This document shows, piece by piece, positions 3,178 to 48,447 of a DNA stretch of 64,000 bases. Position 1 is the first letter of the stretch, and each line of letters starts with the position of its first letter. Where the stretch lies: the NCBI RefSeq assembly GCF_056746865.1, contig NZ_CM163382.1; one strand, 5' to 3'. The translations under genes and the position numbers were made by a program. The notes beneath the pieces are model-generated. The model ran no database searches. It saw only the letters and a program-made list of their open reading frames with translations, and was not told the origin of the DNA.

Positions 3178-5003
3178 TGAAATTGCAAAAGCAATTACTG
3201 GAAGCTGTGGAGCACAAACAGCTACGCCCGCTGGATGTGCAATTTGCCCTGACCGTGGCGGGAGATGAACATCCTGCCGTCACCCTCGCGGCAGCCCTGT
3301 TAAGCCACGACGCCGGGGAAGGGCATGTCTGTTTACCGCTCTCACGACTGGAAAATAACGAGGAGTCACATCCGCTGTTAGCAACCTGTGTCAGTGAAAT
3401 CGGTGAGTTACAAAATTGGGAAGAATGCTTGCTGGCTTCACAAGCGGTCAGCCGGGGAGATGAACCAACGCCGATGATCCTCTGTGGTGATCGTCTTTAT
3501 TTGAATCGCATGTGGTGTAACGAGCGCACAGTGGCACGCTTTTTCAACGAAGTGAATCATGCCATTGAGGTTGATGAAGCTCTACTGGCGCAAACCCTGG
3601 ACAAACTTTTTCCAGTAAGCGATGAAATTAACTGGCAAAAAGTTGCGGCGGCAGTGGCGCTGACGCGGCGGATCTCGGTGATTTCCGGCGGCCCTGGCAC
3701 CGGTAAAACGACCACCGTAGCGAAGTTGCTGGCAGCGTTAATTCAAATGGCAGACGGCGAACGCTGCCGTATCCGTCTGGCTGCACCAACGGGTAAAGCT
3801 GCCGCGCGCTTAACCGAATCTCTCGGCAAGGCTTTGCGCCAGTTACCGCTGACCGATGAACAAAAGAAACGCATTCCGGAAGATGCCAGCACTTTGCACC
3901 GATTGCTGGGTGCGCAGCCGGGTAGCCAGCGTTTACGTCATCATGCCGGTAACCCGCTGCATCTTGATGTGCTGGTGGTAGATGAAGCGTCAATGATCGA
4001 TCTGCCTATGATGTCGAGACTGATCGACGCCTTGCCCGATCATGCGCGAGTGATCTTTCTCGGCGATCGTGATCAACTGGCTTCGGTTGAGGCTGGGGCA
4101 GTGCTGGGCGATATCTGCGCTTATGCCAATGCCGGCTTTACCGCCGAGCGTGCCGGGCAGTTGAGCCGCCTGACGGGAACTCACGTTCCGGCAGGAACTG
4201 GCACAGAAGCGGCATCTTTGCGCGACAGTCTCTGCCTGCTGCAAAAAAGCTATCGTTTCGGCAGCGATTCTGGCATTGGTCAGTTAGCTGCGGCGATCAA
4301 CCGTGGTGATAAAACGGCAGTGAAAACCGTTTTTCAGCAGGATTTTTCTGATATCGAAAAACGGCTTTTACAGAGCGGCGAAGATTATATTGCGATGCTT
4401 GAGGAAGCTCTTGCGGGTTACGGACGTTATCTGGATCTGCTGCAAGCGCGTGCCGAGCCGGATTTAATCATTCAGGCGTTCAATGAGTACCAGCTTTTGT
4501 GCGCCCTGCGGGAAGGGCCGTTTGGCGTGGCTGGACTGAATGAGCGAATTGAGCAGTTTATGCAACAGAAGCGCAAAATTCATCGTAATCCGCACTCTCG
4601 TTGGTACGAAGGCCGACCGGTGATGATTGCCCGTAATGACAGCGCGCTTGGGTTGTTTAATGGCGATATCGGTATCGCTCTGGATCGTGGGCAGGGGACG
4701 CGCGTCTGGTTTGCGATGCCGGACGGCAATATTAAGTCTGTGCAACCGAGTCGCTTGCCAGAGCACGAAACTACGTGGGCGATGACGGTACATAAATCGC
4801 AGGGATCGGAGTTCGACCATGCGGCGTTGATTTTACCGAGCCAACGCACGCCGGTAGTAACACGAGAGCTGGTTTACACCGCGGTGACCCGCGCGCGTCG
4901 CCGTCTGTCGCTGTATGCCGATGAGCGCATTTTAAGTGCGGCAATTGCCACGCGCACCGAGCGGCGCAGCGGTCTGGCGGCGTTGTTTAGTTCACGGGGA
5001 TAA
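3177..5003 (+). CDS. recD: RecBCD subunit RecD (5'-3' helicase)
   Basis: 608-aa ORF with Walker A motif GGPGTGKTT; start overlaps recB stop. Confidence 0.95.
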
Positions 5004-5011
5004 ACGTAATT

Positions 5012-5052
5012 GCCGGATGCGACGCACGAGTGTTACGCATGTCGCATCCGGC
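5012..5052. repeat. REP-like palindrome (gccggatgcgac ... gtcgcatccggc), probable bidirectional terminator between convergent recD and argA
   Basis: Perfect 12-bp inverted repeat seen directly, followed by a short T-run. Confidence 0.5.
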
Positions 5053-5064
5053 GATTTTCATCGC

Positions 5065-6396
5065 TTACCCCAAATCCGCCATCAACACTTTGGATTTACG
5101 CTGGTAGTTGTACAACTGCTTTTTGCTCTCGGGCAGTAAATCAATATCCACTGGGGTAAATCCACGTTCCTGGAACCAGTGAATACTGCGCGTGGTCAGC
5201 ACAAATAATTTGCTTAAGCCGCTCTGCTTCGCCTGAGCGGCAATGCGTTCCAGCAGAACCTCGCCCCGTGATGAACTGCGGTAATCCGGGTGAACTGCCA
5301 CACAGGCCATTTCCCCAATCTTCTCTTCCGGGAAAGGATAGAGCGCGGCGCAGGCAATAGTCGTGTTATCGCGCTGAATAATGGTGAATTTGTCGATTTC
5401 CATCTCCAGCTGCTCGCGAGAACGGCGTACCAGAATACCTTGCTGCTCCAGCGGGCGAATCAACTCCAGAATACCGCCAATATCATTGATTGTTGCGCGA
5501 CGAATCTGCTCGGCGCTTTCCATCACAATCTGCGTACCGATACCGTCGCGTGAGAACAACTCTTGCAATAGCGCGCCATCTTCCTGATAACTGATTAAAT
5601 GACAGCGACGCACGCCGCTGCGGCAGGCTTTCACTGCGCCACGCAAAAAGCGCACCGTACCGGAGTTGTAATCGCCTTTCTCTTCCTGGGCTTCTACCCG
5701 CGCTTGCGCTTCGTTAGGGAAAAGTTCGGAGACAATATCACCGTCGTCATTAGTGACGCCCTGGGAAGAGCAAAAACCAATCATCTTTTCAGCTTTCAGT
5801 TTGATGGCCAGTTGAGTGGCAATCTCTTCCGAGGTCAGATTAAAGCTCTCGCCAGTGACTGAAACAGCGACCGGCCCCATTAGCACTATTGCACCGCTGT
5901 CCAGTTGACGATGGATCGCGTCTTCATCAATCCGCCGGATACGCCCGCTATGGCAGTAATCCACGCCGTCATCGACGCCCAGCGGCTGGGCGATAATAAA
6001 ATTGCCACTGACGACGTTGATATGCGCGCCCTGTAGCGGCGTGTTATTGAGACTCATCGACAGGCGAGCAGTAATATCCAGTTGCAATGTTCCCGCAGCC
6101 TGCTTCACCAGTTCCAGTGTTTTGGCGTCGGTCACACGTATATTCTTGTGATACAGCGGTTCGTGGTGATGCGCAGCCAGATTTGCGTCGATCTGCGGAC
6201 GTGCGCCATAGACCACCACCAGACGGATGCCGAGGCTGTGCAGCAACCCGATATCATTAACGATACTGGAGAAATTCTCATGCTCAATGGCTTCACCGCC
6301 GAGCATGATGACAAACGTTTTTCCCCGGTGGGTATTGATATAGGGAACCGAATGGCGGAATCCCTCGACCAACTCGGTTTTACGTTCCTTTACCAC
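5065..6396 (-). CDS. argA: N-acetylglutamate synthase (443 aa from a GTG start; track ORF extends 22 codons further upstream)
   Basis: Protein recognised as ArgA; GTG at 6394-6396 preceded by an AGAGG Shine-Dalgarno; track ORF 5065..6462. Confidence 0.9.
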
Positions 6397-6410
6397 GGCA
6401 CACCTCTTTG

Positions 6411-6447
6411 CATGATTATTCGAAATTATTGTATTTTTATTCTGTTT
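6411..6447 (-). promoter_or_regulatory. Candidate pair of ARG boxes (ArgR operator) upstream of argA
   Basis: Minus strand reads cAGAATAAAAATAcAATaa and ttcGAATAATCATGCAaa, two adjacent 18-mers resembling the TGAAT-wwww-ATTCA ARG-box consensus; argA is a known ArgR target. Confidence 0.4.
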
Positions 6448-6627
6448 TTTCGCAGGGTGCAAGTGTAAATTTTATGCGAGAGCGACTTTTTTATCAGTAA
6501 TGCCGTGAATATAAAAAGAATGTTTACCGTTTATTAGATGACAGATTATGCGTCTTTCGCTAAAGTTTCCGGTCAAATTAGTCGTTTACTTGTTACACAG
6601 CTTAGATTTCTTTTGCTCGGGAGAGGC

Positions 6628-7881
6628 ATGTCAGGATCCAACACTGCAATCAGCCGTCGTCGTTTACTGCAAGGCGCGGGTGCCATGTGGCTATTGAGCG
6701 TAAGTCAGGTCAGTCTGGCTGCGGTCAGCCAGGTCGTGGCGGTGCGCGTCTGGCCTGCGTCCAGCTACACCCGCGTGACGGTAGAATCAAATCGTCAGCT
6801 GAAATATAAGCAGTTCGCGTTGAGTAACCCGGAACGCGTGGTGGTGGATATCGAAGATGTAAACCTGAACTCGGTACTCAAGGGGATGGCGGCACAAATT
6901 CGTGCAGACGACCCGTTCATCAAGTCGGCGCGCGTCGGGCAATTTGACCCGCAAACCGTACGCATGGTTTTTGAATTAAAGCAAAACGTAAAACCGCAGC
7001 TGTTTGCCCTTGCGCCGGTCGCCGGGTTTAAAGAGCGTCTGGTGATGGACCTCTATCCGGCTAATGCACAGGATATGCAGGACCCGCTGCTGGCGCTGCT
7101 GGAGGATTACAACAAAGGCGACCTCGAAAAGCAGGTGCCGCCAGCACAAAGTGGTCCACAACCGGGTAAAGCAGGGCGCGATCGTCCGATTGTTATTATG
7201 CTTGACCCTGGCCACGGCGGCGAAGACTCCGGTGCGGTGGGGAAATACAAAACGCGCGAAAAAGACGTGGTATTGCAAATAGCTCGCCGTTTGCGCTCTC
7301 TGATCGAGAAAGAGGGCAATATGAAGGTGTACATGACGCGCAATGAAGACATCTTCATTCCGTTGCAAGTGCGCGTAGCAAAAGCCCAGAAACAGCGTGC
7401 CGACCTGTTTGTCTCTATCCATGCCGACGCCTTTACCAGTCGCCAGCCGAGCGGTTCCTCTGTGTTTGCGCTCTCAACCAAAGGTGCAACCAGTACTGCG
7501 GCAAAATATCTGGCACAAACCCAGAACGCCTCGGACTTGATTGGTGGCGTGAGCAAAAGCGGTGACCGCTATGTCGACCACACCATGTTCGATATGGTGC
7601 AGTCGCTGACCATTGCCGACAGCCTTAAGTTTGGTAAAGCGGTGCTGAATAAGCTCGGTAAAATCAACAAGCTGCATAAAAATCAGGTTGAACAGGCCGG
7701 GTTTGCCGTGCTGAAAGCGCCTGATATTCCCTCCATTCTGGTCGAAACGGCGTTTATCAGTAACGTTGAGGAAGAGCGTAAACTGAAAACGGCGACCTTC
7801 CAGCAGGAAGTTGCGGAGTCTATTCTTGCGGGGATTAAAGCGTATTTTGCCGATGGGGCGACGCTGGCGAGAAGGGGATGA
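6628..7881 (+). CDS. amiC: N-acetylmuramoyl-L-alanine amidase AmiC (Tat signal RRRLLQGAG)
   Basis: Track ORF 6538..7881; start taken at the ATG at 6628 preceded by GGGAGAGG; twin-arginine signal and amidase_3 domain recognisable. Confidence 0.9.
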
Positions 7882-30990: not shown

Positions 30991-31163
30991 GACTCTGTAG
31001 GAGATCGCCAGGAAATAAGCGAATACTTAAAAAGATAAGAATCGTTATTTTCATTTAAAATCAATATATTGCTTGTTAATCCTTAACTTTCATATGAAAT
31101 TTTCCTTAAGGCATTGTCTGTAAGCGCCTTGTAAGACTTCGCGAAAAAGACGATTCTATCTTC

Positions 31164-31530
31164 GTCGACAGGGAGTCAGACAACGAAGTGAACATCAGGA
31201 TGATGACACTTCTGAAGGACACACCAGGATGGTGTTTCAGGGAAAGGCTTCTGGATGAAGCGAAGAGGATGACGCAGGACGCGTTAAAGGACACCTCCAG
31301 GATGGAGAATGAGAACCGGTCAGGATGATTCGGTGGGTCAGGAAGGCCAGGGACACTTCAGGATGAAGTATCACATCGGGGTGGTGTGAGCAGGAAGCAA
31401 TAGTTCAGGATGAACGATTGGCCGCAAGGCCAGAGGAAAAGTTGTCAAGGATGAGCAGGGAGCAACAAAAGTAGCTGGAATGCTGCGAAACGAACCGGGA
31501 GCACTGTGAATACAGTGCTCCCTTTTTTTA
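31164..31530 (+). ncRNA. csrB: CsrB sRNA (CsrA-sequestering RNA)
   Basis: Begins GTCGACAGGGAGTCAGACAACGAAGTGAACATCAGGATGATG; many CAGGAUG/AGGA-type CsrA-binding motifs throughout; ends with a rho-independent terminator. Confidence 0.9.
31497..31529 (+). terminator. csrB rho-independent terminator
   Basis: gggagcactg-tgaata-cagtgctccc hairpin followed by TTTTTTT. Confidence 0.85.
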
Positions 31531-31574
31531 TTCCTGCTATTCTTCGCGGCAGTTTTTCTTATTGAGGTTGCTTT

Positions 31575-33627: not shown

Positions 33628-34980
33628 ATGAGTTCTTTAAGTCAGGCTGCGAGCAGTGTGGAAAAACGCACGAATGCTCGTTACTGGATAGTGGTGATGT
33701 TGTTTATCGTCACATCCTTCAACTACGGCGACCGCGCTACGCTTTCTATTGCCGGTTCGGAAATGGCCAAAGATATCGGCCTTGATCCCGTGGGAATGGG
33801 CTATGTGTTCTCTGCCTTCTCATGGGCTTATGTTATCGGGCAGATCCCTGGTGGTTGGTTGCTGGATCGTTTTGGTTCAAAACGCGTCTACTTCTGGTCG
33901 ATCTTTATCTGGTCGATGTTTACCTTGCTGCAAGGCTTCGTCGATATCTTTAGTGGATTCGGCATTATCGTTGCCCTGTTTACGCTGCGCTTCCTGGTCG
34001 GGCTTGCTGAAGCGCCATCTTTCCCCGGCAACAGTCGCATTGTTGCGGCCTGGTTTCCGGCGCAGGAAAGGGGAACGGCGGTGTCGATTTTTAACTCCGC
34101 TCAATACTTCGCAACGGTGATCTTCGCGCCGATTATGGGCTGGCTGACGCATGAAGTGGGCTGGTCACACGTCTTCTTCTTTATGGGCGGTCTGGGGATT
34201 GTCATCAGCTTTATCTGGTTGAAAGTCATCCACGAGCCAAATCAACATCCGGGGGTAAATCAGAAAGAGCTGGAGTACATCGCCGCGGGTGGCGCGCTGA
34301 TCAATATGGATCAGCAAAACACCAAAGTTAAAGTGCCGTTCAGCGTGAAGTGGGGGCAGATCAAACAACTGCTCGGGTCACGGATGATGATCGGCGTTTA
34401 TATCGGTCAGTACTGTATCAACGCCCTGACTTACTTCTTTATTACCTGGTTCCCGGTTTATCTGGTGCAGGCGCGTGGGATGTCGATTCTGAAAGCGGGC
34501 TTTGTGGCTTCCGTTCCGGCGGTTTGCGGTTTTATCGGCGGTGTGCTGGGTGGGATTATTTCCGACTGGCTGATGCGCCGCACGGGATCGCTGAACATTG
34601 CGCGTAAAACACCGATCGTAATGGGCATGTTGCTGTCGATGGTGATGGTGTTCTGCAACTACGTCAACGTTGAGTGGATGATCATCGGCTTTATGGCGCT
34701 GGCCTTCTTCGGTAAGGGCATCGGGGCGCTGGGTTGGGCAGTAATGGCAGATACCGCGCCAAAAGAGATCAGCGGTCTTTCCGGTGGCCTGTTCAACATG
34801 TTCGGTAACATTTCTGGCATCGTCACGCCAATCGCAATTGGTTATATCGTTGGCACGACTGGCTCCTTTAATGGGGCGCTGATTTATGTTGGTGTTCATG
34901 CCTTAATCGCGGTACTGAGCTACCTGGTGCTGGTGGGCGATATCAAGCGTATCGAGCTGAAACCTGTCGCGGGGCAATAA
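33628..34980 (+). CDS. gudP: Glucarate/galactarate transporter (MFS)
   Basis: 450-aa polytopic membrane ORF. Confidence 0.9.
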
Positions 34981-34981
34981 G

Positions 34982-36322
34982 ATGACGACACAATCCAGTC
35001 CTGTTATTACTGATATGAAAGTCATTCCGGTCGCCGGGCACGATAGCATGTTGCTTAATATTGGTGGGGCGCATAACGCATATTTCACTCGCAATATTGT
35101 GGTACTCACCGATAACGCCGGGCATACCGGCATTGGTGAAGCGCCAGGCGGAGAGGTGATTTATCAGACATTGGTCGATGCTATTCCGATGGTGCTGGGC
35201 CAGGAAGTTGCGCGCCTGAATAAAGTGGTTCAGCAGGTGCATAAAGGTAATCAGGCAGCCGATTTTGATACCTTCGGCAAAGGTGCCTGGACTTTTGAAT
35301 TGCGCGTTAATGCCGTGGCGGCGCTGGAAGCCGCCTTGCTTGACCTGCTAGGTAAGGCGCTGAATGTTCCGGTCTGCGAACTGTTGGGGCCAGGCAAGCA
35401 ACGCGAGGCTATTACCGTCCTCGGTTATCTGTTTTATATCGGTGATCGGACCAAAACCGATCTTCCTTATCTGGAAAATACGCCGGGCAACCATGAGTGG
35501 TATCAATTGCGGCATCAGAAAGCGATGAACAGCGAAGCCGTTGTGCGTCTGGCGGAAGCTTCACAGGATCGCTATGGCTTTAAAGATTTCAAACTTAAGG
35601 GCGGGGTGTTACCTGGCGAGCAAGAAATCGACACTGTTCGTGCATTGAAGAAACGCTTCCCGGATGCGCGAATTACCGTTGATCCCAACGGTGCATGGCT
35701 GCTTGATGAAGCAATTTCTCTGTGCAAAGGGCTGAATGATGTTCTCACCTATGCTGAAGATCCATGCGGCGCTGAGCAGGGTTTCTCCGGTCGTGAAGTG
35801 ATGGCTGAGTTTCGACGGGCGACCGGCCTGCCCGTCGCGACCAACATGATTGCCACCAACTGGCGCGAAATGGGCCATGCGGTAATGCTTAATGCGGTGG
35901 ATATTCCACTTGCCGATCCGCATTTCTGGACGCTTTCCGGTGCAGTCCGCGTAGCGCAGCTTTGCGACGACTGGGGGCTGACCTGGGGCTGCCATTCCAA
36001 TAACCACTTTGATATCTCTCTGGCGATGTTTACCCATGTGGGTGCGGCGGCACCGGGTAATCCTACCGCTATCGATACCCACTGGATTTGGCAGGAGGGC
36101 GATTGTCGCCTGACCAAAAATCCGCTGGAGATTAAAAACGGAAAAATTGCCGTTCCTGATGCGCCCGGTCTGGGCGTGGAACTGGACTGGGAGCAGGTAC
36201 AAAAGGCGCATGAGGCCTATAAACGTCTGCCTGGCGGTGCGCGTAACGACGCGGGCCCGATGCAGTACCTGATCCCCGGCTGGACCTTTGACCGTAAACG
36301 TCCCGTTTTCGGCCGTCATTGA
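34982..36322 (+). CDS. gudX: Glucarate dehydratase-related protein (enolase superfamily)
   Basis: 446-aa ORF, paralogous to the downstream gudD. Confidence 0.9.
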
Positions 36323-36342
36323 TTTTGAAAAAGGACATAAAT

Positions 36343-37683
36343 ATGAGTTCTCAATTTACGACGCCTGTTGTTACTGAAATGCAGGTCATCCCGGTGGCGG
36401 GCCATGACAGTATGCTGATGAATCTGAGTGGTGCACACGCACCGTTCTTCACGCGTAATATTGTGATTATCAAAGATAATTCTGGTCACACTGGCGTAGG
36501 GGAAATTCCCGGCGGCGAGAAAATCCGTAAAACGCTGGAAGATGCGATTCCGCTGGTGGTGGGTAAAACGCTGGGTGAATACAAAAACGTTCTGACGCTG
36601 GTGCGTAATACATTTGCCGATCGTGATGCCGGCGGGCGCGGTTTGCAGACATTTGACCTGCGGACCACTATTCATGTGGTTACCGGGATAGAAGCGGCAA
36701 TGCTGGATCTGCTGGGGCAGCATCTGGGGGTTAACGTGGCATCGCTGCTGGGCGATGGTCAACAGCGTAGCGAAGTCGAAATGCTCGGTTATCTGTTCTT
36801 CGTCGGTAATCGCAAAGCCACACCGCTGCCGTATCAAAGCCAGCCGGATGATAAATGTGACTGGTATCGCCTGCGTCACGAAGAAGCGATGACGCCGGAT
36901 GCGGTGGTGCGCCTGGCGGAAGCGGCATATGAAAAATATGGCTTCAACGATTTCAAACTGAAGGGCGGTGTACTGGCCGGGGAAGAAGAAGCAGAATCTA
37001 TTGTGGCACTGGCGCAACGCTTCCCACAGGCGCGTATTACCCTCGATCCTAACGGTGCCTGGTCGCTGAACGAGGCGATTAAAATTGGTAAATACCTGAA
37101 AGGTTCGCTGGCTTATGCAGAAGATCCGTGTGGTGCGGAGCAAGGTTTCTCCGGGCGTGAAGTGATGGCAGAGTTCCGTCGCGCGACAGGTCTGCCGACT
37201 GCAACCAATATGATCGCCACCGACTGGCGGCAGATGGGCCATACGCTCTCCCTGCAATCCGTTGATATCCCGCTGGCGGATCCGCATTTCTGGACGATGC
37301 AAGGTTCGGTACGTGTGGCGCAAATGTGCCATGAATTTGGCCTGACCTGGGGTTCACACTCTAACAATCATTTCGATATTTCCCTGGCGATGTTTACCCA
37401 CGTTGCCGCTGCTGCACCGGGTAAAATTACTGCTATTGATACGCACTGGATCTGGCAGGAAGGCAATCAGCGTCTGACCAAAGAACCGTTTGAGATCAAA
37501 GGCGGGCTGGTACAGGTGCCGCAAAAACCAGGATTGGGCGTAGAAATCGATATGGATCAGGTGATGAAAGCCCACGAGCTGTATCAGAAACATGGGCTTG
37601 GTGCGCGTGACGATGCGATGGGAATGCAGTACCTGATTCCTGGCTGGACGTTTGATAACAAGCGCCCGTGCATGGTGCGTTAA
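36343..37683 (+). CDS. gudD: Glucarate dehydratase
   Basis: Track ORF 36319..37683; start taken at the ATG at 36343 ([15 protein letters not shown]). Confidence 0.9.
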
Positions 37684-37694
37684 GACAGAAAACC

Positions 37695-37721
37695 AAAACC
37701 GGCTCTTTCAGGAGCCGGTTT
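37695..37721. terminator. Hairpin terminator between convergent gudD and barA
   Basis: aaaa-ccggctc-tttcag-gagccgg-ttt. Confidence 0.5.
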
Positions 37722-37805
37722 GAGACTGATGCCAAACGCAAAATTGCCTGTTGCGCTACGTATCAGGCCAACATACTTTTTAATTCATTGAATTTAATTG
37801 GTTTT

Positions 37806-37840
37806 GTAGGCCGGATAAGGCGTTAACGCCGCATCCGGCA
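37806..37840. repeat. REP element
   Basis: gtaggccggataaggcgttaacgccgcatccggca palindrome. Confidence 0.5.
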
Positions 37841-37913
37841 TAAACACAGGCACCTTGTCACCAATCTGAAACCAGCGTCATAAAAAGCCGATTGCTACTC
37901 GACAAGACGTCCA

Positions 37914-40670
37914 TTACCCGAGAATTTTGCTGGCTTCGCGCGCTACATTATCCATCTCGTCCAACAGTTCCAGCAGCTCCGGCTCCAAATCTTCTTCTTT
38001 AGTACCGCTACGTAGCTGTTGTTCGATCAGTTGGCAGAGATTCTTCATACGCGGCACACCGCTATAGCCGCAACTGCCATGCAGTTTATGAATCAAATCA
38101 ACCAGGCCTTCCGGGTTTTCTCCAACCAGCTGTTCCTCAACTTTGTTGCGAACTTCAGGCAGGAAATCGAGTAACATTTGCAGCATATCGCGCGCTAAAT
38201 CGGTTTTTCCTGCTGCCTGGCGTAGTGCCAGTTGCCAGTCGAGGGTCGCATTCGGGTTCACCACAATTTCGTTGACTTCGGGCGTCACGACGCGAGAGGA
38301 AATACCGCTGCCAGGCTTGTAGCGCAACAGCAAATTATGCAATCGTTCTTCTTCAATCGGTTTCGCCAGATAATCGCTCATCCCTGCGCCAAGCAGCTTC
38401 TCTTTTTGCCCGGCCATTGCATGCGCCGTTACCGCGATAACTGGCGTTTGTTGCTGATGGGGGAGCTGGTGGATGAGTTCGCAGGCCCGAATGCCGTCCA
38501 TGTCCGGCATTTGAATATCCATTAAGATCAAATCGAACGGCATCTGTTTCGCCCGTTCAACCGCCTGATGCCCGCTATCGCAAAGTTCCACATGTTGCAC
38601 CATATCTTCCAGCAATGCGCCGATAAGTTTCAGGTTAGCGGGGTTGTCATCAACCGCCATGACTGTCATTGCCAGCTTACTTTCATCGGTTACAGGCAAA
38701 AGCGTGTTTTGTTTGTGATGACAAAATTCCGTCAGGGCAGGTAACAGGCGCGTAGGTGTTAATGGTTTCAGCAGACACGCGCCGATACCATCTTGCTTAA
38801 GTTTTTCAGCATTGACTTGTGCATGGCAAGGAAGTGCCAGCATCAGAAAATCGGTCATCGATACCGCTTTCGCTAATCGCTCATGTTGCATTGTTAGCGG
38901 CTCGCGGAAGGTCACCGCAATGCCTAATAACATCATGTCGTAATGCGCGGGAGGCAGCGCGGAGAACGTTGGGCTATAAACCACTTCCAGCGGCGTTTCA
39001 CTTAAAATATCCAGCGTGCATTGCGCTGCTGCGGAGTTTGGTTCGACATAGGCCAGGCGCTTGCCGGCGAGGCATTGGGTGGATGGCCCTTCGATAATAA
39101 TGTTCGGATTCAGATCGAGATTAATGTGGAACCAGAAAGTTGAACCGCGATTCGGCTGGCTATGGAACGAAATATCGCCGCCCATTTCATTAACCAGTTT
39201 TTGTGTAATCACCAGCCCCAGCCCGGTGCCACCATGACGGCGGGAAATACTGGCATCAGCCTGTCGGAAGGCCTGGAATAAGCGCGATTGATCGCGTTCC
39301 GGAATACCAATGCCGGTATCCCGAATCTGCACTTCAATCTGCACTTTGGTATTACTCAGCGCACGTTTTTCTACCAGAATATCAATGTTGCCATTCTCGG
39401 TGAATTTAATTGCATTCCCTACCAGGTTAGTGATGATTTGCTGTAATCGTAGTGGGTCGCCGATAACGTTATCAGGCACGTCGCTTTTAATATTGAGCGT
39501 CAGTTCCAGCCCTTTATCGTGAGAAGAATGTGCCAGCAGGGTAACGACTTCATCCAGCGTGCTGCGTAGTGGGAATGGAATACTTTCCAGAATCAGCTTA
39601 CCTGCTTCCAGTTTCGAGAAGTCGAGAACATCATTAATAATTGCCAGCAAATTATTTGCCGAACGTTCAATCGTATTCAGGTGATCGCGCTGCGTTGGTG
39701 TTAATTCTGTTTTCAGCGTCAGGCGGGTAAAGCCAATAACACCATTCAGTGGTGTACGCAGTTCGTGTGACATATTTGCCAGAAACTCGGATTTAATACG
39801 CGCCGCTTCCTGGGCGCGCTTTTTCGCCAGATCCAACTCAACGTTCTGAATTTCCATCTGCTCCAGCGTTTCACGCAGATCGGACGTCGCCTGGTCGATA
39901 TTGTGCTGCATCTCTTCGTGATAAGCAGCCAGCGACATTGCCATCGAGTTGATACCGTTTTTCAGCATATCCAGCTCACCAAGCATAAATCCTTCCACCC
40001 GGCTGTCGAGTTGCCCGCGACGGATGCGGTCGACGGTATTCACCATGTTGCGAATCGGACCGGTTACATCGCGCATTAAGCGCCAGCCAAAAATAAGCGC
40101 AATACCGATACAAAACAGCATCATCACGCTGGAAATAAAGATCTCTTTATATTGCTGCAAGCGAACCGATTTAAGATCCAGCTCCAGCGCAATATATCCC
40201 AGCATATTTTGACTATTTTTGGCATCGCTACTGGGCGATTCGTCGGGGGAGTAACTCTCAGAAATAATCGGCGTGCGGAGGATCATAATATCGCCGTCAC
40301 GAGTGACAGTGAGCTGGCGAGGAAACGGCACGTTGCTGCCGAGCTGCATTGATGAGGGATCAAGATGAAAATTGGAAGTGACAAAGAGTCGGTTATTTTC
40401 ATCATAAACCGAAATCGCGCGAACAATATCGGAATGGCGACGATGCAGTACGCTTATTAACTGACCGATAGATTCGCGATTTTGCAGGCTCATGCCATAT
40501 TCAGTAGAAACTGCAAGCGGCTCAATAATGCTGGCTCCGGCATCTTCCAGTTGACGCTGCAAGTCGTTATAGCGATGCACAACGAAAAAGATACTCAGCA
40601 ATAAACCAATAAGGACGGTCGGTGCCAGGATCAGAATCATCATGCGTGCGCGCAGGCTGTAGTTGGTCAT
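37914..40670 (-). CDS. barA: Hybrid sensor histidine kinase BarA (HAMP-HisKA-HATPase-REC-HPt)
   Basis: 918-aa ORF; cognate regulator UvrY controls csrB, also present in this window. Confidence 0.95.

Positions 40671-47133: not shown

Positions 47134-48447
<1,314 letters not shown>

Follow-up and report, generated by a model that had tools for sequence, protein, structure and literature searches.

Conservation and divergence of the tandem enolase-superfamily genes gudX and gudD of the Escherichia coli gudP-gudX-gudD operon

The window, a stretch of 64,000 nucleotides, carries three closely spaced genes on its plus strand. The first gene of the operon is gudP (33628..34980), which codes for an MFS galactarate/glucarate/glycerate transporter of 450 aa according to RefSeq and to the NCBIfam profile search, where its product scored 538.6 bits against TIGR00893. 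Only 1 nt separates the stop codon of gudP from the ATG of gudX, and the junction reads ...CAATAAGATGACG. The second gene, gudX (34982..36322), encodes the glucarate dehydratase-related protein (GlucDRP) of 446 aa, an assignment that comes from the open reading frame, RefSeq and a PDB match. It is followed by a spacer of 20 nt (36323..36342, plus strand; TGATTTTGAAAAAGGACATAAATATG), read from the sequence, which holds the Shine-Dalgarno-like motif AAGGA 8 nt 5' of the gudD ATG; this motif may serve in ribosome binding. The third gene, gudD (36343..37683), encodes the 446-aa D-glucarate dehydratase, as given by RefSeq, TIGR03247 and PDB entry 1EC7. For this gene, the program-made list of open reading frames uses a TTG at 36319 as the start (454 aa), and the 446-aa RefSeq protein begins 21 nt past the gudX stop, at the ATG at 36343. 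The two adjacent 446-aa proteins described by the sequence-only reading of this DNA are thus found on the same strand, and RefSeq uses the same gene names, gudX and gudD. The two peptides quoted in that reading are also present, one being residues 8-28 of GudD and the other residues 7-27 of GudX.

Downstream of the pair, a pattern scan found a GC-rich hairpin with a 10-bp stem (37696..37721), located 13 nt past the gudD stop and before barA (37914-40670, minus strand), which encodes a sensor kinase of 918 aa and converges on gudD. The hairpin was scored on the minus strand, where it has a T-rich tail, the tail on the plus strand being just TTTGAG; it is a probable terminator. A scan for sigma-70 promoters 5' of gudP gave none that was convincing, with 2 matches versus 4.2 expected by chance.

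Many E. coli chromosomes carry the 4.4-kb region with 100% identity, and it has a match in 5,425 of 5,426 complete genomes. On the matching chromosomes, RefSeq annotates gudP, gudX and gudD with the lengths, spacing and order seen in the window, naming the product of gudX 'enolase C-terminal domain-like protein' and that of gudD 'glucarate dehydratase'. We estimate at about 95% the probability that the region studied makes up the distal two-thirds of the gudP-gudX-gudD operon of E. coli, with GudX an ancient duplicate and the antisense open reading frames of the two genes mechanical shadows of their coding sequences. The identity and the paralogy of the pair are effectively settled.

GudX and GudD align from end to end by BLASTP with 284 of 448 positions identical (63%), 78% positives, 592 bits and E = 0.0. 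This is far above chance, and the strong pairwise identity claimed from the letters alone is therefore borne out. Profile PF13378 (MR_MLE_C) of Pfam matches both proteins, with 173.5 bits for GudX and 163.7 bits for GudD, which together with the 63% identity confirms their proposed homology within the enolase superfamily. For PF02746 (MR_MLE_N), GudX passes with 35.9 bits and GudD, with 15.8 bits, is under the gathering score of 22. Both proteins align over their full length with solved GlucD structures.

The assignment of the two proteins to a function is sharper with TIGR03247, the NCBIfam equivalog for glucarate dehydratase, which has a curated cut-off of 828.7 bits. GudD scores 899.3 bits, above the cut-off, and GudX scores 749.5 bits, below it; GudX is therefore not to be classed as a glucarate dehydratase. 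Other families of the subgroup (talarate/galactarate, arabinonate, mannonate and galactonate dehydratases) give at most 64 bits with both proteins. The near-identity of GudD to the crystallised enzyme, a comparison of sequences, makes D-glucarate dehydratase (EC 4.2.1.40) its accepted predicted function, an activity that converts D-glucarate or L-idarate to 5-keto-4-deoxy-glucarate. GudX matches PDB chains 4il0_A and 4gyp_C, both named 'Glucarate dehydratase-related protein', over residues 1-446 with approximately 1040 bits. Entry 4GYP was returned for both sequences and holds chains of GudX and of GudD, which means that the two proteins were crystallised together. This co-crystal points to a possible GudX/GudD complex, without being proof of a physiological heteromer.

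The sequence-only reading also drew attention to long open reading frames on the reverse strand of both genes, which it considered liable to mis-annotation. These frames do exist. On the minus strand of gudX, a frame of 236 aa (35609..36319) is the codon-aligned antisense frame and is not a gene, and a frame of 122 aa (35749..36117), which lies in a second reverse frame with an offset of 2 and has no annotation, is a chance open reading frame. The codon-aligned antisense frame of gudD, likewise not a gene, is open for 338 aa (36316..37332, minus strand), and that of gudP for 173 aa (34378-34899, minus strand). In a codon-aligned antisense frame, stops can only arise from the sense codons TTA, CTA and TCA. 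These codons occur 3 times in gudX and once in gudD (a TCA, with neither TTA nor CTA), and it is this near absence that explains the long reverse-strand frames.

That the frames at 35609-36319, at 36316-37332, or both, are real overlapping antisense genes hardly deserves consideration, even if a simulation with the average codon usage of the window places their lengths in its upper tail (P = 0.045 for 236 aa and P = 0.003 for 338 aa). Shadows of at least 337 codons are found in 4 of 29 long genes of the window, among them eno (393 of 432 codons), so that such a length is ordinary for codon-biased genes. The positions of antisense stops vary freely between species and the shadow frames are not conserved: another genome of Escherichia breaks that of gudD at codon 101, and the Orbales and Pasteurellales, whose GC3 is low, have 20-37 stops that leave shadow frames of 70 codons or less. 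Substitutions follow the sense frame, with low dN and saturated dS. The Pfam search of the 236-aa frame gave no match, and that of the 338-aa frame gave a best hit of E = 0.2 and 11.9 bits, far under the gathering score. RefSeq annotates no reverse-strand gene at the locus, and the exact shadow sequences were not found in a collection of 15 billion predicted proteins. Frame, lack of conservation, Pfam, RefSeq and the protein collection together rule out these reverse-strand frames as genes. The risk of mis-annotation did not materialise either, given that RefSeq annotates none of them, that their exact sequences are absent from the collection and that they are not conserved.

To examine the conservation of the active site, D-type (35) and X-type (21) sequences taken from 37 genomes were aligned, with residues numbered as in GudD. 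In GlucD, we take K207 and H339, with K205 and D313, to be the general bases. The metal ligands are presumably D235, E266 and N289, with E260 additionally conserved; E266 rather than E260 was assumed to be the Mg2+ ligand, a choice that does not affect the conclusion. Contacts with the substrate are presumed to be made by H32, T103, Y150, N237, N341, H368 and R422. These roles reportedly go back to Gulick et al. 2000, along with UniProt. A full-text search for literature naming Lys207, His339 or Asn289 gave only unrelated papers on human genetics.

All 15 catalytic or ligand residues (H32, T103, Y150, K205, K207, D235, N237, E260, E266, N289, D313, H339, N341, H368 and R422) are found in the GudD of the window, and all are invariant in 21 of 21 X-type sequences. 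Of these residues, 14 are also invariant in 35 of 35 D-type sequences, the remaining one, T103, being replaced by E in a single D-type sequence. The KxK motif and the His-Asp dyad are present in both proteins, as K205/K207 and H339/D313 in GudD and as K204/K206 and H338/D312 in GudX. The candidate Mg2+-binding residues D235, E260, E266 and N289 are also present and invariant in both clades. The catalytic residues, a check proposed in the sequence-only reading, are therefore conserved in both copies. Residue N341 is the site of the mutants in PDB entries 1JCT (N341L) and 1JDF (N341D), and is thus a residue of experimental interest.

The two clades are set apart by a signature that, from D to X, comprises S29G, an insertion of two residues near residue 89, Q102W, D105E, the deletion of residues 108-109, H111N, T114A, Q140K, D294N, S322A and S338C. 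Many of these sites adjoin the active site: S29G lies 3 residues before H32, the changes from Q102W to T114A cluster around T103, D294N lies 5 residues past N289, and S338C is beside H339. The GudX of the window belongs to the GlucDRP clade, given that it has G29, W102, E105, the deletion of 108-109, N111, A114, N294 and A322, and that its gene is directly 5' of gudD. It also bears a 14-letter loop stretch of the X type that is common to all displayed X-type sequences. In PDB entries 3PWG (S29G/P34A) and 3PWI (P34A), GudD was mutated to the residues that GudX has at these positions, which means that differences between X and D have already been probed by others. Judged from the aligned residues, GudX seems to retain the whole catalytic machinery under a lid that has been remodelled.

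The distribution of the two types was surveyed in 80 loci, with one genome per species. The order gudP, X-type, D-type is found in Citrobacter, Enterobacter, Erwinia, Pantoea, Mixta, Dickeya, Pectobacterium, Brenneria, Serratia, Rahnella and Siccibacter. It is also found in the Orbales (Zophobihabitans and one Orbaceae genome), in the genus Cricetibacter of the Pasteurellales and in one unclassified proteobacterial MAG. The tandem X-D order was counted in 34 loci. Halomonas and Salinicola have an X-like gene without a D-type partner, and Pseudomonas, Acinetobacter, beta- and alphaproteobacteria and Firmicutes have the D-type only.

In a neighbour-joining tree, the X-type sequences stand apart from every D-type sequence in 100 of 100 bootstraps, and both clades mirror the relationships of the species across three gammaproteobacterial orders. 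Since the tree was midpoint-rooted, without an outgroup, the X-type may either have branched ahead of all sampled D-type sequences or have accelerated after a duplication in the gammaproteobacteria. Between gudX and gudD of the window, synonymous sites are saturated (pS 0.69), the longest identical run of DNA is 18 nt and third-position identity per window of 30 codons ranges from 0.27 to 0.60. Recent gene conversion between the two genes is ruled out by this run length and by a third-position identity that never exceeds 0.60. The proposal that the pair reflects an old tandem duplication is upheld by clades that repeat the species tree in three orders, by the value of pS and by the lack of any sign of recent gene conversion.

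In-frame gudX::gudD deletion hybrids were observed to recur in Salmonella, E. coli, Klebsiella and Pantoea stewartii. In Pantoea stewartii subsp. stewartii (L025), a single gene of 445 aa stands in place of the pair. The X-type part of its product, approximately the first 250 residues, reaches 98% identity to the GudX of Erwinia and Pantoea, and the last approximately 170 residues are D-type, residues 276-375 being 96-100% identical to GudD versus 76-84% to GudX. Other strains of P. stewartii retain a normal GudX of 448 aa. Further chimeras of 445 aa cross over near residue 210 or residues 260-285 in Salmonella, near residue 245 in Klebsiella, and near residue 182 or residues 201-211 in E. coli, so that the X::D chimeras have at least six distinct crossover points. 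The contigs of several Salmonella assemblies read gudP, hybrid, glycerate kinase, barA, and an E. coli contig reads gudP, hybrid, barA; none of these contigs has a second copy of the enolase family. Assemblies GCA_023494805.1 and GCA_033785485.1 are examples of Salmonella isolates with the hybrid. For the E. coli hybrid, 451 of 482 informative DNA sites fit one crossover at nucleotides 615-624 of the hybrid, an interval that falls within the sequence coding for the KLKGG motif.

Two hybrid junctions, used as 300-nt probes in megablast, had no full-length match of at least 95% identity in 5,426 complete E. coli genomes. The probes aligned in every genome through the paralogous half, at approximately 86-88% identity, and their coverage is uninformative because megablast extended the alignments into that half. 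Recombination between tandem paralogs is expected to give deletion products such as these X::D alleles, and the existence of lineages in which one hybrid replaces both genes means that an intact GudX is, at least sometimes, dispensable. A more tentative idea, which we hold to be possible and rather less than probable, is that gudX-gudD is a recombination-prone module in which deletions at short homologies repeatedly give in-frame chimeras of 445 aa with an X-type cap and a D-type barrel. If this is true, and if the chimeras are active, they would be natural domain swaps, the capping loops of the X type would be compatible with the chemistry of GlucD and an intact GudX would be dispensable, which would narrow the long-open question of the purpose of GudX.

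The repeated loss of intact gudX through X::D fusion could be taken to mean that gudX is a decaying duplicate, a pseudo-enzyme that is being lost and has no function of its own, the more so as GudX scores below the glucarate dehydratase cut-off and has, in most comparisons over larger distances, diverged slightly more quickly than GudD. With respect to the E. coli proteins, GudX and GudD are 72% versus 82% identical in Cricetibacter and 78% versus 82% in Serratia. We nevertheless consider decay very improbable, and it is already contradicted by the selection data. The dN/dS values are 0.015-0.066 for gudX and 0.009-0.108 for gudD, which shows strong purifying selection on both genes. The gudX frame is intact, with approximately 443-451 codons, in 23 of 23 loci examined. 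The 21 X-type sequences show no change at any catalytic residue, and even the hybrids remain in frame.

From the conserved residues and the gene content, a mechanism can be proposed for the operon, which would handle the uptake and dehydration of D-glucarate, with GudP importing the substrate. GudD, a member of the mandelate-racemase type of the enolase superfamily, is accepted to follow the standard mechanism of the superfamily, given its near-identity to the characterised enzyme. In this mechanism a base, Lys207 (KxK motif) or His339 (His-Asp dyad), takes the C5 proton to give an enediolate stabilised by Mg2+, from which the 4-OH is eliminated to yield 5-keto-4-deoxy-glucarate. GudX keeps the full catalytic apparatus, its divergence lying mainly in the capping loops that close over the substrate, with second-shell changes beside His32, Thr103, Asn289 and His339.

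This retention of the catalytic and substrate-binding residues of GudD, together with the location of both genes in one operon with a common transporter and the survival of the X-type capping half in hybrids that replace both genes, would suit a GudX that backs up GudD as a weaker, redundant glucarate dehydratase and acts on the same substrate by the same chemistry. We find this explanation unlikely, although less so than decay. The score of GudX under the equivalog cut-off of TIGR03247 argues against it, as does a signature fixed beside the substrate-contacting residues and conserved over three orders, a pattern not to be expected of plain redundancy that has lasted so long at a dN/dS of approximately 0.02-0.07. 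In addition, according to Hubbard et al. 1998 and UniProt, GudX reportedly shows very little activity, if any, on glucarate or idarate, and no significant activity on them in vivo, which is again at odds with a back-up role. A full-text literature search for GlucDRP or 'glucarate dehydratase-related protein' gave no match. In a Tn-seq study of Dickeya solani, gudP, gudD, gudX and garL were fitness genes on galactarate (PMC10202176); polarity on the downstream gudD may account for the gudX phenotype.

Most likely, GudX is not in decay, nor is it a glucarate dehydratase that merely duplicates GudD. It is instead most likely a functional enolase-superfamily subunit, either with a specificity shifted towards another acid sugar or acting as a modulator of GudD in a mixed oligomer. 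We infer this from the evolutionary constraint on gudX, its invariant catalytic residues, the fixed clade-specific lid and the co-crystallisation with GudD.

The finding of the gudX-gudD pair is right and was previously known, since these are textbook genes that are properly annotated. Its impact on annotation is small, given that the genes have been crystallised and are correctly annotated. Nonetheless, gudX, being under the curated cut-off, should not take the name 'glucarate dehydratase' through homology, and several database entries do mislabel GudX in this way. Likewise, the long antisense frames in gudX and gudD should not be called genes. The conserved loop signature specific to the X-type and the natural X::D hybrids, which could act as natural domain swaps, give concrete handles on the role of GudX.

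When compared with known systems, the GudD of the window matches GudD/GlucD of E. coli K-12 (PDB 1EC7, 1EC8, 1EC9 and 1ECQ) over all of its 446 residues, and the two are alike in length, operon position and catalytic residues. The 2 substitutions with respect to 1EC7, at positions 171 and 394, represent strain-level polymorphism only. The GudX of the window has no substantive difference from GudX/GlucDRP (PDB 4IL0, and with GlucD in 4GYP), and its RefSeq gene name is the same. Non-enteric GlucD proteins (PDB 1BQG, and the single-copy genes of Pseudomonas, Bacillus and Bradyrhizobium, loci L034-L081) are 70-77% identical to the GudD of the window, and one of the two GlucD copies of Lucifera is 69% identical to it. 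They have the same 15 active-site residues as GudD, except for one sequence with E103, and are 62-66% identical to GudX; in contrast to the tandem pair, most of these genomes have at the locus one D-type gene, unaccompanied by an X-type one. A more distant group, labelled 'putative glucarate dehydratase', is represented by PDB entries 4IT1 and 3VC5. At the level of the mandelate racemase subgroup (MR_MLE_N plus MR_MLE_C), the two-domain build, the KxK motif and the His-Asp dyad are common to GudX and GudD, and the metal ligands are, as in both proteins, acidic or amide residues at the ends of the barrel strands.

Hybrid genes that join gudX and gudD in frame (gudX::gudD) and encode 445 aa recur in place of the tandem gudX-gudD pair; their N-terminal part is of the GudX clade (X-type) and their C-terminal part of the GudD clade (D-type). 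Such genes lie at 6001-7338 of a Pantoea stewartii locus (L025) and at 5001-6338 of loci from Salmonella (L082-L084) and E. coli (L085), and the database proteins P0082, P0150, P0183, P0191, P0209, P0210, and P0216 are likewise hybrids. At least six different crossover points occur among them. The breakpoint of the E. coli hybrid falls within the sequence coding for KLKGG, and a single crossover fits 451 of the 482 informative DNA sites. The Salmonella allele P0191 is carried by at least 24 contigs. When 5,426 complete E. coli genomes were searched with 300-nt probes at two junctions only, no gudX::gudD hybrid was found.

Among the database proteins, the entries P0031-P0037 and P0040, of 583-690 aa, reach 99% identity to GudX. 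These entries probably reflect gene calls fused across gudX-gudD or gudP-gudX, with frameshifts or mis-set starts as the probable cause. The source name "glucarate dehydratase", given to several 446-aa GudX sequences, is an over-annotation. The protein-cluster assignments appear muddled: cluster 1, given for GudX, has 450-aa GudP transporters among its members, and P0017, the representative of cluster 2, which was given for GudD, is 99% identical to GudX. The cluster sizes from this listing were excluded from the results.

The gudX and gudD of L023, recorded as Escherichia coli strain SCPM-O-B-8794, encode proteins 99% identical to those of the window and differ from them at synonymous sites with a pS of 0.32-0.34. 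This value is far above that usual within E. coli and, therefore, this species representative probably belongs to a cryptic Escherichia lineage.

Around the operon, the CsrB small RNA (31173-31532, + strand; Rfam RF00018, 382.9 bits, full length) is found approximately 2 kb upstream of gudP, with syd and yqcC on either side, and explains why GC and AT skew are strong in the 31000-31499 bin. The gene barA lies just past gudD, and csrB is controlled by the two-component system of BarA. Between gudD and barA, the palindromic GCCGGATAAGGCGTT...GCCGCATCCGGC (37780-37850) is, on a by-eye reading only, of the REP/BIME type. Enolase itself is encoded by eno (47149-48447, + strand; TIGR01060, 684.9 bits) approximately 9.5 kb downstream of gudX-gudD, which brings the enolase-superfamily genes in the window to three; its codon-aligned antisense reverse-strand ORF is very long, covering 393 of 432 codons.

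In Lucifera butyrica, two adjacent D-type genes (L052, 4581-7323) are located downstream of a gudP-like transporter. Compared with E. coli GudD, their proteins show identities of 69% and 76%, and the pair may have arisen in this Firmicute through a separate tandem duplication.
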